This document shows, in pieces, positions 4,217 to 30,032 of a stretch of 64,000 bases of DNA. The first letter of the stretch is position 1; each line of letters begins with the position of its first letter. The stretch comes from a virus. Lineage: Duplodnaviria; Caudoviricetes. The stretch spans positions 1-64,000 of IMG/VR virus record IMGVR_UViG_3300031555_004294. One strand, written 5' to 3'. The translations under genes and the position numbers were made by a program. The notes beneath the pieces were generated by a model. The model saw only the letters and a list, made by a program, of their open reading frames with translations. It was not told where the DNA came from and ran no database searches.

Positions 4217-5842
4217 TTAAATAATCCAAATAGATGGGTCTGTTGAATCTAAATAGGCAGAAGGATCAGTGGCGTCAACAGTTAAATCAAACTCGGCTTC
4301 GTCCTCTTTACGAATAGAGATGCCAATAGCTTCTTCTCCGTTTCCAATATAAGTTTCTGTTTTCCATCCATCTGGGCATCTATTTCCATTTGTAGGGTCA
4401 TCAACATTAACATCATAGAAAATACCTAAATCATACCCCATCTTAGGAGAAATAACCACGTTATTTGGAATAACGATAGTAATAGGGTTAATACTTAATC
4501 TCTTTTTGCTTGTAGCTGTAGTTGCAGCATAGGCAGAACCTACTGTTACAGTATATTTCTTAATAACCTTAATATTGAAATTTCCTTGATGATTTCCATC
4601 TTGTGTAGCAACAGAAATAGTTGCACTTCCTTCTGCTAAACCTTTAACAATACAATTTAATCCATTTGGTTCAATTGATACGTAACTATCTCCACTATTT
4701 ATTGACCAAGTAACATTTTGATTTGTAGATGTAACTGGTTGAAGTTTAGCCGTTAAAGTAACTGAACCGTTAACACTTACGCTATCTTCTGAAGATATTA
4801 TTGATACTGCGCTTACAGGGATTGATTGATTTGTAACAGTTAAAGCACACTGAGCAGTGTAACTTCCATCACTTGTTTTCGCTTCTATAATAGCAGTGCC
4901 ATTAGCTAAACCAGTAACTGTACATACATTTTTATTACTTGAAATAGATATATTAGTATTTCCAGATTTAATTTCCCAACTAATATTTTGATTAGTAGCA
5001 TTTGATGGTAATATTGAGGCAGTTATTGCAATGGTTTGATTTATTTGCAACGGTGAGCTTGTTACATCCAATTCAACACCAGTAACGGGAATTGTTACTA
5101 TGGTTTCATGATTAGCGTAAACATTTAACCATTTTTGTAATAAATAAGCCATTTTCTTATGTCCTGCCTCATTTGGATGGATTCCATCTGGCATATATAA
5201 ATCACGAATAACTGATAGCTTTGGATAAAATCCTACGTCATTGAAAAAATCAACTACTGGAACAGAATATCTAGTACACACTTCTTTTATAGCATCTACA
5301 TAGTCTTTTAACACATAACCACTGGCATTTTTACTTTCTTCATCCACGTTTTTATAATATCTATGCATAGGAGTTATATAAACGAGACGAGAATTTGGAT
5401 GAGCTTCAATAATGCCCGGAATAATTACATTTAATGCTCCATAAAATGATATATCTCCAACATCTGTAATAGTACCCAATGGTGTTCCGTGTCCGTAATC
5501 ATTAGTTCCTATAAATAATGTAATTAAATCAGCATCAGGAATATTTTGCCAGCGATTAATTAATGGTTCTCTATCTGTTCCATAGTCTGATTTAGCACTT
5601 ACACATGAACCAGAAACACCCATGCCAATTACTTTACCTAATTTCAAAATTTCTTCAAGCATTTGCCAATATATTTTAGTTGTACCAACACCATGAGTAA
5701 TACTATCACCAACACAAACAGCAGTCTTACCTTCCCAGAAACTAAAATCTTTATACGCATTAAGAATGCCATTTTCCATGGCATTCAAATGCGCTGCTGT
5801 TAGTGTTTGTCCATTATTAAAATTTTGTTTGGTATAAGACAT
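4217..5842 (-). CDS. SGNH/GDSL hydrolase with two Ig-like (Big_2-type) domains
   Basis: GDSIT, G.SGS, GTND and DGIHPN blocks; two PV..V.....LTA...P.NATNQN..W Ig-like repeats. Confidence 0.85.
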   Translation of the reverse strand: MSYTKQNFNNGQTLTAAHLNAMENGILNAYKDFSFWEGKTAVCVGDSITHGVGTTKIYWQMLEEILKLGKVIGMGVSGSCVSAKSDYGTDREPLINRWQNIPDADLITLFIGTNDYGHGTPLGTITDVGDISFYGALNVIIPGIIEAHPNSRLVYITPMHRYYKNVDEESKNASGYVLKDYVDAIKEVCTRYSVPVVDFFNDVGFYPKLSVIRDLYMPDGIHPNEAGHKKMAYLLQKWLNVYANHETIVTIPVTGVELDVTSSPLQINQTIAITASILPSNATNQNISWEIKSGNTNISISSNKNVCTVTGLANGTAIIEAKTSDGSYTAQCALTVTNQSIPVSAVSIISSEDSVSVNGSVTLTAKLQPVTSTNQNVTWSINSGDSYVSIEPNGLNCIVKGLAEGSATISVATQDGNHQGNFNIKVIKKYTVTVGSAYAATTATSKKRLSINPITIVIPNNVVISPKMGYDLGIFYDVNVDDPTNGNRCPDGWKTETYIGNGEEAIGISIRKEDEAEFDLTVDATDPSAYLDSTDPSIWII

Positions 5843-5855
5843 ATATTCTGCCTCC

Positions 5856-6947
5856 TTACTTTACTTCCCAAATAGAAATATCAGTAGAATCTAAATAATC
5901 ACCAATAAATGTGCTTTCAGTGGCAAAATCAAAATTGTTGTTATCTGTTTTCCTTATGCAGATACCAACTTCACTACCGTCTCCTGTGTAAGCTTCACTA
6001 GACCAAGCAGTAAATGTTGCTTCTGGAGTTGGAATATCATACTTATTTAAACCAGACCATACAGAAATCTGATAACCACTCTTAGGAGTAATAACTACGC
6101 CAGAAGGAACAACGATGGTGTAAGGATCATGTGTTGCACGATTTTGCATCTGGTTGGATGAAGCAGAATCATCAAACCAGTTACCAGCATATAAAGTATA
6201 CTGAGTAGGCACAACTTCTTCTTTAACTTCCCAAATTGAAGTATCGGTAGCGTCAACGAAATCAGAAATTGGTTTACCAAAGTCACTATCACTAAAATCA
6301 CTATCGTCTGATTTCTTAATACTTAAACCGATAGTTGTAACACCATTACCAGTCCACTCTGTTAATTTCCATCCATCTGGACATCTAAATCCATTTGTAG
6401 GGTCATCTGGGTTAACAGCATAGAAAATACCAATCTTATATCCATCTTTTGGTGTAATTGTTACACCATTAGGAATCTTAATAGTGACAGGATTAATAGA
6501 TGCTCTATTAGCTGAGCTTGCTGTAGATGCAGCATAGGCAGATCCTTTTGTAACAGTATATACAGTAGTAGGCTGTTCAGAAGTATCGGGTTCAACAACC
6601 TCACCACTGCCTTCTTCACCAGTAGAAGTATTCTTAGTAGGAACGTTAATTGTAACATTACCAGTAACAGATGCAATAGCAATAGTAATTGTATTACCAT
6701 TTGTAGTAACAGCAGTACTAGTTATATCACCACTTCCAACCATAGTAACAGTTACACCAGCGGTACCAATTTCATAACCATCCTTAAGAGTTACAGTTGC
6801 ATTAAGAGCAGCACCTTTAGTTACGGAAGAAGGAATAGTATTACTATCTACACCACTTCCTAAAGCCTTAGAAATACTCCAAGTTGTTAATGTGGCAATA
6901 TGCTTACCTTCGCCACTAAAATCGGCACCTTTTAACTTAATAATCAT
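5856..6947 (-). CDS. Putative virion/fibre accessory protein
   Basis: 363 aa, beta-rich; two copies of a domain also found at the C-terminus of 4217..5842 (DDPTNG.RCPDGWK). Confidence 0.6.
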   Translation of the reverse strand: MIIKLKGADFSGEGKHIATLTTWSISKALGSGVDSNTIPSSVTKGAALNATVTLKDGYEIGTAGVTVTMVGSGDITSTAVTTNGNTITIAIASVTGNVTINVPTKNTSTGEEGSGEVVEPDTSEQPTTVYTVTKGSAYAASTASSANRASINPVTIKIPNGVTITPKDGYKIGIFYAVNPDDPTNGFRCPDGWKLTEWTGNGVTTIGLSIKKSDDSDFSDSDFGKPISDFVDATDTSIWEVKEEVVPTQYTLYAGNWFDDSASSNQMQNRATHDPYTIVVPSGVVITPKSGYQISVWSGLNKYDIPTPEATFTAWSSEAYTGDGSEVGICIRKTDNNNFDFATESTFIGDYLDSTDISIWEVK

Positions 6948-22605: not shown

Positions 22606-22617
22606 TAATAGTATGTT
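22606..22617 (-). promoter_or_regulatory. Putative late promoter AACA-N6-TA for the fibre operon
   Basis: Minus strand AACATACTATTA upstream of 22548. Confidence 0.65.
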
Positions 22618-23050: not shown

Positions 23051-24335
23051 CAGGTTATTTTGTATAGTACGTGAAGCTATACATTCTTTACATATCTGTA
23101 AAGTTTAGACTATATCTTTACCATTTTAATGAATGGTATTCTTTATAGACGTAATACTTAATACGCCAATAGTCGTTGGACCTAGCTATACTAGGATGCT
23201 GATTGTCTTTTGAGTTTCCAGCAATTAAAAGAATTTATATTATGGATTCAGCACAGTTATTAAAAAAGTCATCTAATAATTTTTCAATATCAGACATCTC
23301 TTTATATGAGATGCGGATAAAATTCATATTATTTTCAATTGCCCATTCATCTTTAATTCTATCATGCTTTTGAGTTTTTTCAAGATTTTTTATTTTATTT
23401 TCTTTAGTTGAACCATATGATGGTTCAAAATGTTGTTTTCCATCAAACTCAATAAGCATATCATAGGATTCTATATAAAAATCAAATGGCAATGGTAAAA
23501 TATCTCTACAATCTTTAAAACAAACTTCTTTTTGATATTCGATATTTCGAGTTTCTAAATACTTTGTTATCATTCTACTTCCTAATGATTCACCTAATAT
23601 TTCATTGCATCTTGGACACCTAGCATTATGATTTATAAATTCATTTGGACTACAATCGTATTCATGATTGTTACAAATATCTGAAAAATGTTTCATTTTT
23701 ATTGGAATCTTACAGTCAATATATTCATCAGCTATGACTGTATATTCTTTATCCGTTAGGTCTTCAACCTGCTTTTTATATTCTTCAAGAGTAGGTTTTA
23801 TAGTTCCATAACAATATTTACAGCCTTTAGATATTTTATCGTGAATCATATCATTAGCTTTTGGATACCATACTTCCCCACATTTTTTACAAAGGACAGC
23901 TATATTAGTATGTACCTTACTAAAAGGTCCTACGATTTCATAGACATCTATAGACCAACGTGAATAAAATCGTTCTTCATATTCTTGTTGTGTCATAGGT
24001 TTATTACCTCTATGAGATACCTTACGTTTTTTATAAAAAAATGCAGGATCTCCACATGTCCCTTTATCATCTAAGTAACGTGGTTTAGTATTCCAAATAT
24101 GTCCATCTTTATGTCTTAATGCAATATCTCCTCTAGCACCTTCAGGTGGATATGGAGTTATAAGCGTATAATCAGGATAATGTTTTTTAATTCTATCTTT
24201 TAGAATCTCTTCTCGTTGTTTTAAAGTTTTAGTAGCACCCATGTAATCAACTCCTTTTAATAAAATTAATAATTTGTTGCATGAGTGGTTTTTCTTTTTT
24301 GTAAATTATTAGACTTAGCTTAAAATTTCGGGTTT
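23051..24335 (-). mobile_element. Group I intron (IA-like) carrying a homing endonuclease, second intron of the prohead protease
   Basis: P AAUUGCUGGAA (23216-26), Q AAUCAGCA (23197-204), R GUCCAACGACUA (23170-81), S AAGAUAUAGUC (23108-18); exon ends in U, intron ends in G; removal restores SMRGFG|PVS. Confidence 0.9.
23235..24242 (-). CDS. Intron-encoded homing endonuclease, CxxC repeats plus EDxHD/Vsr-like nuclease domain
   Basis: LPFDFYI...IEFDGKQH...HD.IK....IRI; CKKC, CKYC and CPRC; own AAGGAG RBS. Confidence 0.8.
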   Translation of the reverse strand: MGATKTLKQREEILKDRIKKHYPDYTLITPYPPEGARGDIALRHKDGHIWNTKPRYLDDKGTCGDPAFFYKKRKVSHRGNKPMTQQEYEERFYSRWSIDVYEIVGPFSKVHTNIAVLCKKCGEVWYPKANDMIHDKISKGCKYCYGTIKPTLEEYKKQVEDLTDKEYTVIADEYIDCKIPIKMKHFSDICNNHEYDCSPNEFINHNARCPRCNEILGESLGSRMITKYLETRNIEYQKEVCFKDCRDILPLPFDFYIESYDMLIEFDGKQHFEPSYGSTKENKIKNLEKTQKHDRIKDEWAIENNMNFIRISYKEMSDIEKLLDDFFNNCAESII

Positions 24336-24530
24336 ACCGAATCCTCTCATTGAGAAAGCCACTTGCATTCCTTGTCTGATTAAGCCTTGCATGTCTCGAC
24401 CTCTTTCAGTTAGACATGTTTCTACTCGTCCTTTAAGTAAGTTTCTTTCCCACCAAACATCAGTAATTAAGTGAGATAGATTTGATTGATCAATGTATAG
24501 CTGTCTCTCTACAGTTGGGGATAATGGATG
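24336..24530 (-). CDS. Prohead protease, exon 2
   Basis: HPLSP...SHLI...GRVET...GR...FSMRGFG contains the gp21-type His and Ser motifs. Confidence 0.9.
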
Positions 24531-24771
24531 CAAAATATTCATACAAGTTCATTACACTTGCACAGATTATCATCTCTAGTTTAGACACTAGAGTTTAGAC
24601 TATATCTTCATCTGTTTACCAGATGTTTCTCATTTAGAACCAATTTTAGTTCTCTATAGTCGTTGAACCTTAATTTAAATTAAGGATGCTGATTACCTTA
24701 TATTAAGTACTTCCAGCAATTAAAGAAATAAGTAGTTTGCATATCACTATGCAAATCGGCAATCCTTATTT
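24531..24771 (-). ncRNA. ORF-less group I intron (241 nt), first intron of the prohead protease
   Basis: P (24711-21), Q (24687-94), R GUUCAACGACUA (24657-68), S AAGAUAUAGUC (24598-608); removal gives GEAG|HP. Confidence 0.9.
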
Positions 24772-25005
24772 ACCAGCCTCTCCCAACCATGATTTAGTTC
24801 TCAAACGTTCTTGAACATATTCAGATCTAAGAGCATTTTTAATTACATCAGCAGGATAGATACGTTTATTTCTATTTTGTATATCACCCTCTTGAAGAAC
24901 AGTTTCTATGACAGTAGGCTGACCAGATTTATCACTGATAATCTTAGGTGTACTAATCATAGCGTCTTCAGAAATGATATAACCCTTAATTTTTTCATCT
25001 CTCAA
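24772..25005 (-). CDS. Prohead protease, exon 1 (spliced product ~264 aa)
   Basis: LQEGDIQNRNKRIYP...WLGEAG matches the gp21 NRN.R.YP and GE..HP motifs; TTG start with AAGGAG. Confidence 0.9.
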
Positions 25006-25039: not shown

Positions 25040-25051
25040 TAATGTAATGTT
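25040..25051 (-). promoter_or_regulatory. Putative late promoter for the protease
   Basis: AACATTACATTA on minus; identical 12-mer on plus at 25447. Confidence 0.65.
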
Positions 25052-25446: not shown

Positions 25447-25458
25447 AACATTACATTA
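25447..25458 (+). promoter_or_regulatory. Putative late promoter for the head operon
   Basis: AACATTACATTA upstream of 25522. Confidence 0.65.
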
Positions 25459-25521: not shown

Positions 25522-26127
25522 ATGATTGACGAAAAGAATATTTTGCAAGAAATAGAAAATGAAAGTAATGTATTATTAGAAGAACTAAATCTATTATCTG
25601 AAGAAAAGAATGAAAACAAACCAATTGAAAGCATTCAAGATGATAATAAGAAAGACGTACTAAAGAAGAAAATAGTCAATAAAGGCAATGAGATTCTTAA
25701 GCACATGCAAAAAAGAGTTAGTGATGAAGAATATATCGTTAACGGCTACGGTTATCATAGCAAAACATTATATAAAATGTCGACAAAATTCCCATTCTTA
25801 GGTAAAACAATTGGTATGCCGCTAATGGCAATTACTAGAACTGTTACAAATAATGCCATCAGTAGAAAAATGGAACAAGAAAAAGCTCTAAAAGTATATA
25901 CTACACTTAAAGGCGATAAAGCAGCTGTTGATGCTCAGATTGCTATTTTAGAAAAGTTACAAAAACCTAAAAAAGAACAAAAAGAGCAACTAATTCTTTT
26001 AAAGAAGATGTCAGCTGAACTGGAATTTAATTTAAAGCGTGTAGAATATAATTTTAAGATGTCCCATATAGAAGCAGCTCGATCTAAGAATTCCTTTAGT
26101 TCAGGAAGAAAGATTTACAAAATGTAA
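25522..26127 (+). CDS. Hypothetical protein, probably head-associated
   Basis: Strong RBS; acidic N-terminus with L-x-E sites; lies upstream of MCP. Confidence 0.6.
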   Translation: MIDEKNILQEIENESNVLLEELNLLSEEKNENKPIESIQDDNKKDVLKKKIVNKGNEILKHMQKRVSDEEYIVNGYGYHSKTLYKMSTKFPFLGKTIGMPLMAITRTVTNNAISRKMEQEKALKVYTTLKGDKAAVDAQIAILEKLQKPKKEQKEQLILLKKMSAELEFNLKRVEYNFKMSHIEAARSKNSFSSGRKIYKM

Positions 26128-26912: not shown

Positions 26913-26979
26913 AAAGGAGGAAATCATACACTGGATTTGATCTCTTTCGATCAAATTACGTATGATATTTAAACTTATG
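26913..26979 (+). promoter_or_regulatory. Hairpin-bridged ribosome-binding site of the major capsid gene
   Basis: AAAGGAGG (26913-20), stem-loop 26921-26969, ATG 26977 seven nt after the stem. Confidence 0.65.
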
Positions 26980-28643
26980 TCTATTGAATATCGTCAAACA
27001 GCTCGTTCTAGAATGAACGATGGTTTCTCTGATGTATTAAGAGAAGCAGCTGAGTTCTTTGCTAACAAAGGCATTCAGATGACTTCCCATCAGGGTATGG
27101 AAGAAATTCTATCTGAGCAGACTCTCTTCAATGAGTATAAAGATCACTTACTTGAAGGTATGGAGCCTGACCAGGTTGAAAACTTCAATCAACTTATGGA
27201 CAACGCTCGTACCAGCATGCTTCAGGAAGCATCTGTATCTGGCGTTCAGCAAATCGCTGGCTTATCTATGCCTACCATTCGTAAGATGTGGGCAAAGGTA
27301 GCTCTAAAGCATGCTATTCCTACTCAGGTTGTTGCAACTCCTCGTTTTGCTATTTCTTACACCAAGGCATACTTAATGGATGCTGAAGGCAACAAGAAAG
27401 AGCTTCCCGATGCTATCAATAATCTAAACAACAGAGAAGCTCAGCTTCCTAGATTCGTTAACCCTGCTGATGGTCTTGTACTTCCTATGATTGACTTCGA
27501 CCTCTATGCTAATGGTTTCCCACAGGTTCCTGCTCTAAAAGGCACTGACACCATTGACAAGGTCTTCTATGTTGAGACTGTTAAGGTTAACAAGGCTGCA
27601 GTTCAGGCTGCTGCTCAAGCTGCTGAACAGGCTGCTGCTGGTAGCATGAATGGCTATGCAGGTGGTGACATTGATGAGATGACCATTCGTGTTCACATCA
27701 AGACCGACCTGAATGCTCTTATTTCTGCTCGTGTTGCTATTCCCGTTCAGTTAACTGATCCTACTACTGGTGTAGTTACTAAGTACGGTGAAGTTTACGA
27801 GACTCTACTTGGTCGTGTTGACTATGCAGATGGTAAGTTCACTTTAATGTCTTCTGGCAACATGATTACTCATGCATTTATTGATGCTCGTCTCTCTCAA
27901 GAAGCAAATGACTACGGTCAGTCTGTAAGCTTCGACGTTCTTACTAAGGACGTTACCATCGGTGTTGGCAGCCACCTGAATGCTCCTCTGCCTATTGAGT
28001 GGCTTCAGGATACTATGGCTATCTACAATATCGATGGCGCAGCTGAAGTTGTTGACTTAATGTCTCAGACCGTTGCTCAGCAGCTTGAAATTGAGATTTA
28101 CAACTTCCTTAACAACTCTATCGAAGTAAATAACATTCAGTACTTAGGTGAGTTCAATATGATTCCTTCCGCTGGTTACAATGGTACTCCTAAGAGCTGG
28201 CGTGAAGAGCTGAAGACTGTCATTGACTACTATGCAATCAAGATGAAGTCTGATGCTAAGTTCCACGGTGGTAAGTTCATGATCATTGGTAACCCCATTG
28301 ACATGCAGATCATTCCTAACGTTGACTGGGTATTCAACCACACTTCTGACCAGATGTCTGGTGTTGATGTATCCTTCAACCTTGGTGCTTTCTCTGGTGC
28401 TAACAAGTATGAGATGGTTTCTAGTGACCTAGTTCCTGCAGGTGCGTTCATTATGTTCTTCGTACCTGGAATTGATCGTCTCATGACCTACAAGTACTAT
28501 CCTTACACCTTTAACGTAGAAAGAGGTTACCGTGATCCTAATATGCCTAACGTTCCTAGTCTTATGATGACTAAGCGTCATGCACTTGAGGAGTTCACTC
28601 CCCTTATCTGCCGTATTACTATCAAGAATAATATCGGTGCCGT
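26977..28643 (+). CDS. Major capsid protein (T4 gp23-like), exon 1
   Basis: MLQE-AS putative cleavage site; E..QD..A...ID...E...LMS pattern; YKYYPY....P...P..MMTKRHA C-terminal motif; strongly biased codon usage. Confidence 0.85.
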
Positions 28644-28868
28644 TAACAAATATAGCGGTTTTATGCAGAAATGCATATCAAATCTAAAAGAATTGCTGGA
28701 AAAGCTATTGCCAATCAGCATCCTTAGAAATAAGGTTCAACGATTAAGTGTCGCATAAGTTTGCGATCTGTATTTAGAATCCAAAAGCGAGAAATGGATT
28801 ATGATATAATCTCTACTTCTATGAAAATAGAAGACTGACATCTAACAAATGTCAAACTAAGATATTAG
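28644..28868 (+). ncRNA. ORF-less group I intron at the 3' end of the capsid gene (3' splice site at G28861 or G28868)
   Basis: P AAUUGCUGGAA (28691), Q AAUCAGCA (28713), R GUUCAACGAUUA (28735), S AUGAUAUAAUC (28801) with a compensatory P7 pair; P1 GCCGU/GCGGU with U.G. Confidence 0.85.
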
Positions 28869-29036: not shown

Positions 29037-30032
29037 ATGAGTAATAAAAATGCAAAGGGTTATGTTCCTCCTATGACAGATAAAGAATTTAGAGATTTAG
29101 TTTATAGTTTAGTGGGAGATGAGTATACGGTTTTAGGAAAATATGTGAAAACTGATGTAAAAATTAAAATGAGGCATAACACATGTGGACATCAATATGA
29201 AGTTACACCAAATAAATTTCAACAAGGAAGAAGATGTCCAAAATGTTATGGAAATAAAGAAAGAACTTTAGAAAGTTTTAGAGAAGAAATCAAAAACCTA
29301 CCAGATGGAGATGAATACGAATTACTAAGTGTTGAGTGTAAAGATAACAAAACACCAATGGAATTTTTCCATAAAATATGTGGTGAAAAATTTAAAAAAC
29401 CAACTGTTGGATTCTTAACAAATCCAAAGAATAAAGCAAATACTAGATGTCCTATATGTTCTAGACAATACCAAGTAATTAATCATCCAAATAGGTTATC
29501 TTATGAAGATGTTAAGAAAATTGTTGAAACTAAACATTCTGGTGAATATAAACTTCTTTCAGACAATTATAAAAACACTAAGAGTTTGATAAAAATCTTA
29601 CATATTGGTGGTTGTGGTAGAGACTTCGATACCGATATAGACCATTTCAAAAGAAAAGACTATAAATGTCCAAGATGTAATGAATCTGTAGGTGAGCAAA
29701 GAGTAAGAAAAGTCTTAGAAAGTAGAAATATAGAATTTATACAGCAATACAGATTTAAAGACTGTAGAGATAAAAATCCTTTACCATTTGATTTTTATAT
29801 TCCAGCTTATGATCTTTGTATAGAGTTTGATGGTATACAACATTACGAAAAAGCTAATTTTGGTTCTTATGCAGCTGACTTAGATACAATTCAATTACAT
29901 GATGAAATCAAAACTAACTATTGTTTAGATAACAATATTGGTCTCATACGAATTAGTTACAAAGACTTTGATAATTTAGAAAAAGTTTTAAAGAAAGATC
30001 TAAATGAATATCTTAAGGAGTTAGATATATGA
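29037..30032 (+). CDS. Free-standing homing endonuclease, CxxC repeats plus EDxHD/Vsr-like domain
   Basis: CPRCNES.GE...FKDCRD..PLPFDFYI...IEFDG.QH...HD.IK; clearly paralogous to 23235..24242. Confidence 0.8.
   Translation: MSNKNAKGYVPPMTDKEFRDLVYSLVGDEYTVLGKYVKTDVKIKMRHNTCGHQYEVTPNKFQQGRRCPKCYGNKERTLESFREEIKNLPDGDEYELLSVECKDNKTPMEFFHKICGEKFKKPTVGFLTNPKNKANTRCPICSRQYQVINHPNRLSYEDVKKIVETKHSGEYKLLSDNYKNTKSLIKILHIGGCGRDFDTDIDHFKRKDYKCPRCNESVGEQRVRKVLESRNIEFIQQYRFKDCRDKNPLPFDFYIPAYDLCIEFDGIQHYEKANFGSYAADLDTIQLHDEIKTNYCLDNNIGLIRISYKDFDNLEKVLKKDLNEYLKELDI

Follow-up and report, generated by a model that had tools for sequence, protein, structure and literature searches.

Group I introns with an open reading frame (ORF) in P1 have already been published: the I-Ssp6803I ORF overlaps P1/P2 by 61 nucleotides (nt), and the I-PpoI ORF has an overlap of 0 nt (PMC3073962, Table 1). 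In the Synechocystis tRNA-fMet intron, the coding sequence of I-Ssp6803I, a PD-(D/E)XK ORF in P1, doubles as the substrate-binding helix (PMC3073962). In the T4 td intron, the 3' end of the I-TevI ORF supplies core helices (20 nt, P6a and P7), a ribosome-binding-site (RBS) hairpin sequesters the start of the ORF, and td splicing suffers when the ORF is translated from the pre-mRNA (PMC3073962). 'Core creep' has been proposed, with variable and dispensable tails predicted (Edgell et al., PMC3073962), and core-overlapping ORFs are tightly controlled (Hausner et al., PMC3984707). The subject of this analysis is an intron of similar layout in a stretch of 64,000 nt of viral DNA (positions 1 to 64,000 of IMG/VR record IMGVR_UViG_3300031555_004294), hereafter the window, which belongs to a 157-kb IMG/VR phage contig with an estimated completeness of 61%. 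It is the second intron (intron 2) of a gene for an S77 prohead protease. Very probably, intron 2 is a mobile group I intron with a Vsr-like endonuclease gene in its P1 loop, the tail of the ORF having come to double as the guide by way of core creep.

Intron 2 of the prohead protease gene

The head genes of the contig are similar to their counterparts in the Bacillus jumbo phages AR9, PBS1, and BpSp, and judging from these genes the host phage is an AR9/PBS1-like jumbo phage. A megablast search of the locus against GenBank phages gives no match. The protease gene (Pfam PF03420) is on the minus strand and is split into three exons by two group I introns. Intron 2, its parts, and the exons on either side are as follows.

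23051-24335, minus strand: intron 2, a group I intron of probable mobility, 1285 nt; its first base follows the splice-site U (24336) and its last is omega-G (23051)
24336-24530, minus strand: exon 2, 65 codons (HPLS...AFSMRGFG), with a weak Pfam PF03420 match; its final 9 nt (24344-24336) supply the 5' side of P1
22685-23050, minus strand: exon 3, which starts with PVSEKKGDITYIKDPLHILTYDWVIHPSH and runs to the stop; its CAGUU (23049-23045) provides the exon side of P10
23235-24242, minus strand: homing endonuclease ORF, 335 amino acids (aa), three zinc-ribbon repeats and a C-terminal Vsr/EDxHD-like nuclease domain, inside the P1 loop
23244-23258, minus strand: guide segment, consisting of the P10 guide AACUG (23258-23254), a single U, and the P1 guide, or internal guide sequence (IGS), GCUGAAUCC (23252-23244)
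23051-23234, minus strand: ribozyme core P3-P9.1, with the P3 5' strand AUUCUUU at 23234-23228; P3, P4, P6, P7, P8, and P9 are in the Rfam alignment
24315-24317, minus strand: in-frame UAA, which ends read-through from exon 2 seven codons inside intron 2

The joined exons encode a 265-aa product, which is colinear without gaps with the AR9 protease; the latter is uninterrupted at the position of intron 2. Intron-less alleles are found in two IMG/VR phage groups (L014-L017), whose exon 2 is 97% and 85% identical to that of the window. At the insertion site they read GGATTTGGA CCTGTTTCT and GGATTTGGT CCTGTTTCT, and the predicted exon junction agrees exactly with them. Because such uninterrupted alleles are known, the splice sites are fixed independently of any RNA model. 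An identical intron 2 with its ORF is found on eight contigs from several samples. A stop codon that closes exon read-through, like the UAA listed above, is usual in phage group I introns (PMC3073962).

The curated cut-off of RF00028, the Rfam group I intron family, is 50 bits. In an Rfam scan with relaxed filters, intron 2 scores 56.6 bits over 23271-23086, above this cut-off. P3 is formed by AUUCUUU/AAAGAAU in the Rfam alignment, and the minimum free energy fold of the ORF-free 3' part recovers P4, P5, P6, P7, P7.1, P8, P9, and P9.1 (z-score -3.7). The last intron base before the 3' splice site, G23051, is omega-G. The ribozyme is of a compact IA-type. P2 is absent: the guide and P3 are only 9 nt apart, and P2 is a deletion in the Rfam alignment; the ORF therefore sits in the P1 loop. 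We infer from these sequence features that intron 2 is self-splicing.

A guide encoded by the last codons of the endonuclease

P1 is a helix of 9 base pairs (bp), in which the end of exon 2, GGAUUCGGU (24344-24336), pairs with GCUGAAUCC (23252-23244). It carries a U.G pair at the splice site (U24336.G23252) and one internal G.U pair, and its duplex energy is -13.2 kcal/mol. The guide bases of P1 are codons A331-E332-S333 of the 335-aa ORF. P10 consists of 5 bp between AACUG (23258-23254) and CAGUU of exon 3 (23049-23045), so that the P10 guide and the IGS together span codons N329-S333. The stop codon of the ORF (23237-23235) follows the guide, which is 7-15 nt upstream of it, and P3 begins at the next base (23234). 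An initial annotation of this DNA, made from the letters alone, had proposed both pairings, including the U.G pair and the encoding of A-E-S, and both are present on the minus strand at the positions it gave.

The 9-bp P1 is the sole helix of this kind with at least 7 bp in intron 2. Note that a helix of at least 9 bp anywhere in the intron is obtained in ~10% of shuffles, and the pairing by itself is thus not convincing. Within the 50 nt directly 5' of P3, where the guide must lie, the pairing has p = 0.0036. This position-specific result, together with the homologous introns described below, upholds the proposal of the initial annotation that the endonuclease lies in the P1 loop and that its last codons are the guide. 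The exon sequence at the intron-bearing allele also differs by synonymous changes: it reads TTC GGT before the junction and CCA after it, compared with TTT GGA/GGT CCT in the intron-less alleles. These changes replace a U.G by a C-G pair, which makes P1 stronger, and complete P10.

This anatomy suggests how the element would work. The 5' splice site would have to find a guide ~1.1 kb downstream, across the P1 loop, and the whole ORF would have to be transcribed before P1 can form and splicing proceed. P1 and P10 would then dock both exons on the core, restoring the protease frame. The guide (P10 guide and IGS) takes up the last five to seven endonuclease codons, with the stop adjoining P3. The 3' tail of the ORF would be a product of core creep, in which the reading frame is extended into ribozyme sequence, and the amino acids of the tail would be set by the exon and not by endonuclease function.

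Homologous introns at a second site in the same gene

Among GenBank phages, the ORF has its closest relative in BpSp gp188 (38% identity), which is found within the same protease gene; in its record the BpSp gene is annotated as fragments. In Bacillus phage BpSp and two metagenome phages (L017/L016 and L127), the intron sits at a site 60 nt farther downstream in the gene, after DW-V (site 4), and a homologous ORF occupies the P1 loop in all three. The exon ends, guides, and stop codons are as follows.

Window intron 2 (site 2): exon end GGAUUCGGU, guide GCUGAAUCC; stop 6 nt past the guide
BpSp (site 4), ORF 38% identical to that of the window: exon end ACUGGGU, guide GCUCAGU; stop directly past the guide
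L017/L016 (site 4), ORF 34% identical: exon end ACUGGAU, guide GUCCAGU; stop overlapping the first guide base (5' edge)
L127 (site 4), ORF 40% identical: exon end ACUGGGU, guide GCUCAGU; stop inside UUAAUUGCUGG (J3/4-P4)

Each site-4 guide pairs over 7 bp with its own exon. In BpSp the final codons of the ORF, C-S-V-stop, hold the guide GCUCAGU. Between BpSp or L127 and L017 there is a compensatory change: exon position -2 is G in the former two and A in L017, with C and U, respectively, as the facing guide base, so that a G-C pair becomes A-U. Every site-4 guide begins 19 nt upstream of the P3/P4 motif (p = 0.003-0.011 for each of the three introns). The four positions of the stop codon form the pattern that core creep predicts.

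The core of the window intron is 67% identical to the core of BpSp intron 2, compared with 52-59% for six other cores, and the guide flanks AAUAAY ... AUAA are common to the window and its homologues. These similarities make it probable that ORF and ribozyme travelled as one between the two sites, with the guide being rewritten. Movement of the ORF without the ribozyme is disfavored by the same core identities, though the margin is small. For the BpSp and Twort loci, Rfam gives no match at E-values up to 0.01, though the introns are visible by eye.

Another example of a guide within an ORF is found in an IMG/VR intron of the same subfamily (L043). Its P1 loop has an unrelated GIY-YIG ORF (5831-6673, plus strand), and the end of the upstream exon pairs with the last two codons of this ORF plus the initial base of its stop codon, GCG CAC U (AGUGCGU/GCGCACU). 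The layout therefore recurs with an unrelated endonuclease family. A screen of the 117 IMG/VR sites of a shared P3/P4 17-mer for ORFs ending just upstream was rejected as a measure of how frequent P1-loop ORFs are, as most of the matches are upstream exons, e.g., of Hsp70. By eye, GIY-YIG ORFs are seen at that place in L040, L038, and L043, with a clear guide-in-ORF pairing in L043 only.

The endonuclease

The ORF matches PHROG 559 (E-value 5e-54). Its relatives carry DUF723/DUF4379/CapR zinc-ribbon repeats and are named DUF2726 or Vsr-like in some sources. A single-sequence search of IMG/VR with the endonuclease finds nothing, and sequence and profile searches of PDB give spurious matches only, so that a fold search is needed. 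An AlphaFold model based on 36 relatives has a predicted local distance difference test score (pLDDT) of 90, and of 62 in the last five residues. Residues 217-335 of the model align with Vsr (1CW0; Z 12.1, root mean square deviation (rmsd) 2.7 Å, 109 residues) and with the catalytic domain of I-Bth0305I (3R3P; Z 10.1, rmsd 2.7 Å, 97 of 97 residues). D254, E265, H271, D294, and K297 are invariant in the 36 relatives and are candidates for the composite catalytic motif E-D-x-H-D. By its modeled fold, which is Vsr-like and I-Bth0305I-like, the protein is classified as an EDxHD-type (Vsr-like) homing endonuclease whose DNA-binding part is different. Its candidate substrates are the intron-less alleles of the L014 and L016 types.

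PHROG 559 and several GenBank records label this family 'HNH endonuclease'. No HNH family is found in Pfam at E-values up to 0.1, and a Vsr-like domain is the sole nuclease-like one found; the label probably misnames the family. Alignments to the relatives stop near residues 313-329. The C-terminal tail is thus unconserved, which fits the predictions of core creep. A free-standing paralogue of the endonuclease exists in the window at 29037-30032 (plus strand), with 33% identity over 313 residues (E-value 2e-41).

Translation, predicted start masking, and splicing

As the guide is 7-15 nt upstream of the stop and P3 begins at the next base, translation on the unspliced RNA would have to unfold P1. 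A ribosome terminating at the stop would have the guide and P3 inside its channel and, by analogy with td, interfere with both helices. The ORF has a strong Shine-Dalgarno (SD) sequence, AAAGGAG (24257-24251), 8 nt from the AUG. Two local structures are predicted near the 5' splice site and the start of the ORF.

24236-24287, minus strand: predicted start-masking stem, CACUCAUG (24287-24280) with CAUGGGUG (24243-24236), in which the AUG is paired; it encloses the SD sequence and a match to the motif AACA-N6-TA
24327-24341, minus strand: local hairpin over the 5' splice site, UUCGG (24341-24337), loop UAAAC, CCGAA (24331-24327)

The start-masking stem of the window has a z-score of -2.04, with 6 of 200 shuffles folding as well. 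Such stems are predicted in all four homologous introns. SD and AUG are both paired in BpSp (z-score -2.8) and in L127 (z-score -3.0), and the AUG is paired in L017 (z-score -1.3); the sequences differ and the layout is common. On full-length pre-mRNA the element may thus limit ribosome interference by burying the start region of its ORF in a stem. Predicted masking in four of four introns, as in I-TevI, suggests that competition between translation and splicing is avoided rather than used.

Alternatively, the endonuclease may be translated from an RNA of its own whose start is within that stem. AACA-N6-TA is the late-promoter consensus of AR9 (PMC5449584). The match AACAAATTATTA at 24278-24267 (minus strand) exists between the two arms of the stem, and likewise one is found in BpSp. 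By the predicted fold, a transcript begun at this match would have a free AUG.

An identical 12-mer, AACATTACATTA, is found ahead of both the protease gene (25040-25051, minus strand) and the divergent gene at 25522 (25447-25458, plus strand). A similar sequence, AACATACTATTA, at 22606-22617 (minus strand) precedes the next gene. These sites are candidate late promoters with a consensus longer than AACA-N6-TA.

Weighing the explanations

Several observations weigh against the reading of intron 2 as a mobile intron with its guide in the ORF tail and its start region masked. The Rfam scan of the whole window with default filters misses both introns, and a search of JGI metagenome contigs for the exact spliced junction (GGAUUCGGU joined to CCAGUUUCA) finds nothing. 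In L127 the P10 pairing is weak. Of the four introns compared, three occupy a single insertion site and are therefore not independent. The start-masking stems are thermodynamic predictions, only moderately above shuffles (z-scores -1.3 to -3.0). AACA-N6-TA occurs 77 times in the window compared with 88 expected, i.e., it is not enriched, and it is absent from L017 and L127, so that two of four homologues have it. The match inside the intron, which the initial annotation had pointed out, is indeed present; at this frequency it has no statistical weight, and as stand-alone evidence it was rejected.

The initial annotation went on to propose a regulatory RNA switch on protease production, in which translation of the ORF and formation of P1 compete, the local hairpin serves as a decoy, and the balance sets the protease level. 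The guide and P3 do exist within the footprint of a terminating ribosome, the SD of the ORF is strong, and td splicing falls when the RBS hairpin of I-TevI is opened (PMC3073962). As far as physical interference goes, the competition follows from the geometry and from this precedent. Its use for control is another matter, as the predicted masking of the start region in four of four homologues indicates avoidance. The decoy hairpin exists, but it is weak (-4.6 kcal/mol compared with -13.2 kcal/mol for P1; z-score -1.4, 22 of 200 shuffles folding as well) and has no counterpart in the homologues BpSp and L017; it was therefore rejected as a conserved element. Sister phages have no intron 2 at this site, and some have no intron 1 either, implying that control of the protease is independent of the intron, and no signal is linked to the balance. 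With the promoter motif at chance frequency as well, a switch is unsupported and unlikely. Related phages make the same protease without an intron here; the element is thus dispensable and behaves as a selfish insertion.

Less probable still is a two-piece ribozyme. An RNA started in the intron, containing the ORF, guide, core, and exon 3, would be translated first and would then capture exons 1-2 in trans via the 9-bp P1, which is unusually long; or ribosome passage would time protease versus endonuclease synthesis. A natural two-piece ribozyme is conceivable because nothing but P1 links the 5' exon to the ribozyme and because a possible late promoter, the match described above, exists inside the P1 loop.

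Slightly behind this, and very improbable, is a decaying or splicing-impaired relic, in which the distant P1 is inefficient and the protease is partly inactivated or a protein cofactor is needed. A P1 loop of 1.1 kb is kinetically unfavorable and P2 is absent. However, the same intron and ORF recur on the eight contigs, the ORF is full-length with invariant nuclease residues, all core helices are intact, and synonymous sites of the exon are fitted to the guide. The head protease is, moreover, an essential gene in phage assembly.

A local P1 with CCGAA as the real guide, the ORF in a P2-type loop, and the distant complementarity arising by chance can be all but dismissed: helices of at least 9 bp do occur in ~10% of shuffled introns, and intron 1 and the site-2 intron of L127 do use short local P1 helices, but in the hairpin the splice-site U is an unpaired loop base without a U.G pair, the 9 nt between guide and P3 have no P2 3' strand (P2 is deleted in the Rfam alignment), and three homologues have no local alternative and each have a distal guide at offset -19 from P3.

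Intron 1 and other introns of the phage

The upstream part of the protease gene comprises the following.

24772-25005, minus strand: exon 1 of the S77 prohead protease, 78 codons, C-terminal ...GEAG; Pfam PF03420 (E-value 1.2e-7), frame and junction colinear with AR9 and BpSp
24531-24771, minus strand: intron 1, an ORF-less group I intron of 241 nt with a short local P1; RF00028, 55.3 bits

Intron 1 is inserted directly 5' of HP, between GEAG and HP, and intron 2 four codons past FSMRG. We take GEAG-HP and FSMRG to be the catalytic His and Ser motifs of S77, the latter with the catalytic serine. Intron 1 is missing from an ENA contig (L130) that has an identical intron 2 and ORF; there exons 1 and 2 are fused into a 149-aa S77 ORF. 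It follows that the presence of intron 1 varies among near-identical phages. Intron 1 is also missing from L016/L017.

The protease gene has four insertion sites in ~270 nt of coding sequence: between GEAG and HP, between RGFG and PV, in the Tyr codon of T-Y-D-W, and at DW-V. Loci of this hot spot are L014:4255-5691, L006:1390-2141, and L127:374-523. A 155-nt ORF-less intron is found in L127 at the site used by intron 2 of the window. ORFs on the opposite strand exist in the L014 intron and in intron 1 of BpSp.

A third group I intron-like element is found in the window at 28634-28833 (plus strand; RF00028, 44.7 bits, under the cut-off), at the 3' end of a Gp23-like major capsid gene (Pfam PF07068; ORF 26962-28758, plus strand). 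A compensatory change is present in its P7 (GAUUA/UAAUC). As the capsid frame continues into the element, the true C-terminus of the capsid protein is uncertain. The endonuclease paralogue at 29037-30032 begins ~200 nt past this element. A partial group I intron match of 30.3 bits is found on the same phage contig outside the window (G000:C1:33536-33632, L004).

Comparison with known systems

The likeness to I-Ssp6803I concerns the place of the ORF and the double role of its coding sequence. I-Ssp6803I differs in that its host gene is a bacterial tRNA gene without translated exons, its endonuclease belongs to another family, and its intron is not from a phage. The Physarum Pp.LSU3 intron also has its ORF, I-PpoI, in P1 (PMC3073962, Table 1), but it is a nuclear ribosomal DNA intron with a His-Cys box enzyme and a core overlap of 0 nt.

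With T4 td/I-TevI the intron has in common the contribution of the ORF 3' end to the ribozyme, the hairpin at the ORF start (predicted here), and the core creep pattern, the C-terminal residues of I-TevI being dispensable (PMC3073962). In td, however, a GIY-YIG ORF is in the P6 loop, whereas in intron 2 the overlap is the guide itself and the tail codons follow the exon. I-Bth0305I, the EDxHD endonuclease of the recA intron of Bacillus phage 0305phi8-36, is likewise a phage group I intron endonuclease with a Vsr-like catalytic domain. It interrupts P5 and has NUMOD and helix-turn-helix DNA-binding modules (PMC3239194), whereas the window protein has three zinc-ribbon repeats, and no sequence match between the two endonucleases is detectable.

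Introns of Twort, PBS1, and Enterococcus phages have endonucleases of the same family (28-31% identity), and the 3' ends of their ORFs abut or overlap the core. They differ in the place of the ORF: in Twort IepA/IepB, in Enterococcus Ef2.3, and probably in Mawwa it follows the P7 5' strand, in a P8-side loop, and in PBS1 and Internexus it occupies the P6 loop and overlaps P7.

In AR9-like jumbo phages the gene for the head protease is a hot spot of intron insertion: at least four sites are found around the His and Ser motifs predicted to be catalytic, and these genes are routinely mis-called as fragments. In intron 2 one RNA stretch serves both as coding sequence and as the guide selecting both splice sites. 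The same unit of ORF and ribozyme is found at two sites 60 nt apart, with the guide rewritten per exon, so that the C-terminal residues of the endonuclease vary with the target (AES, CSV, AQY). The four stop positions document core creep in progress. Knowledge of how group I introns and their endonucleases work is unchanged by this locus: its layout is real and conserved, and it is a phage example of an already known arrangement and not a new kind of switch. Compared with the systems above, what it adds is a worked example of guide retargeting within a coding tail.

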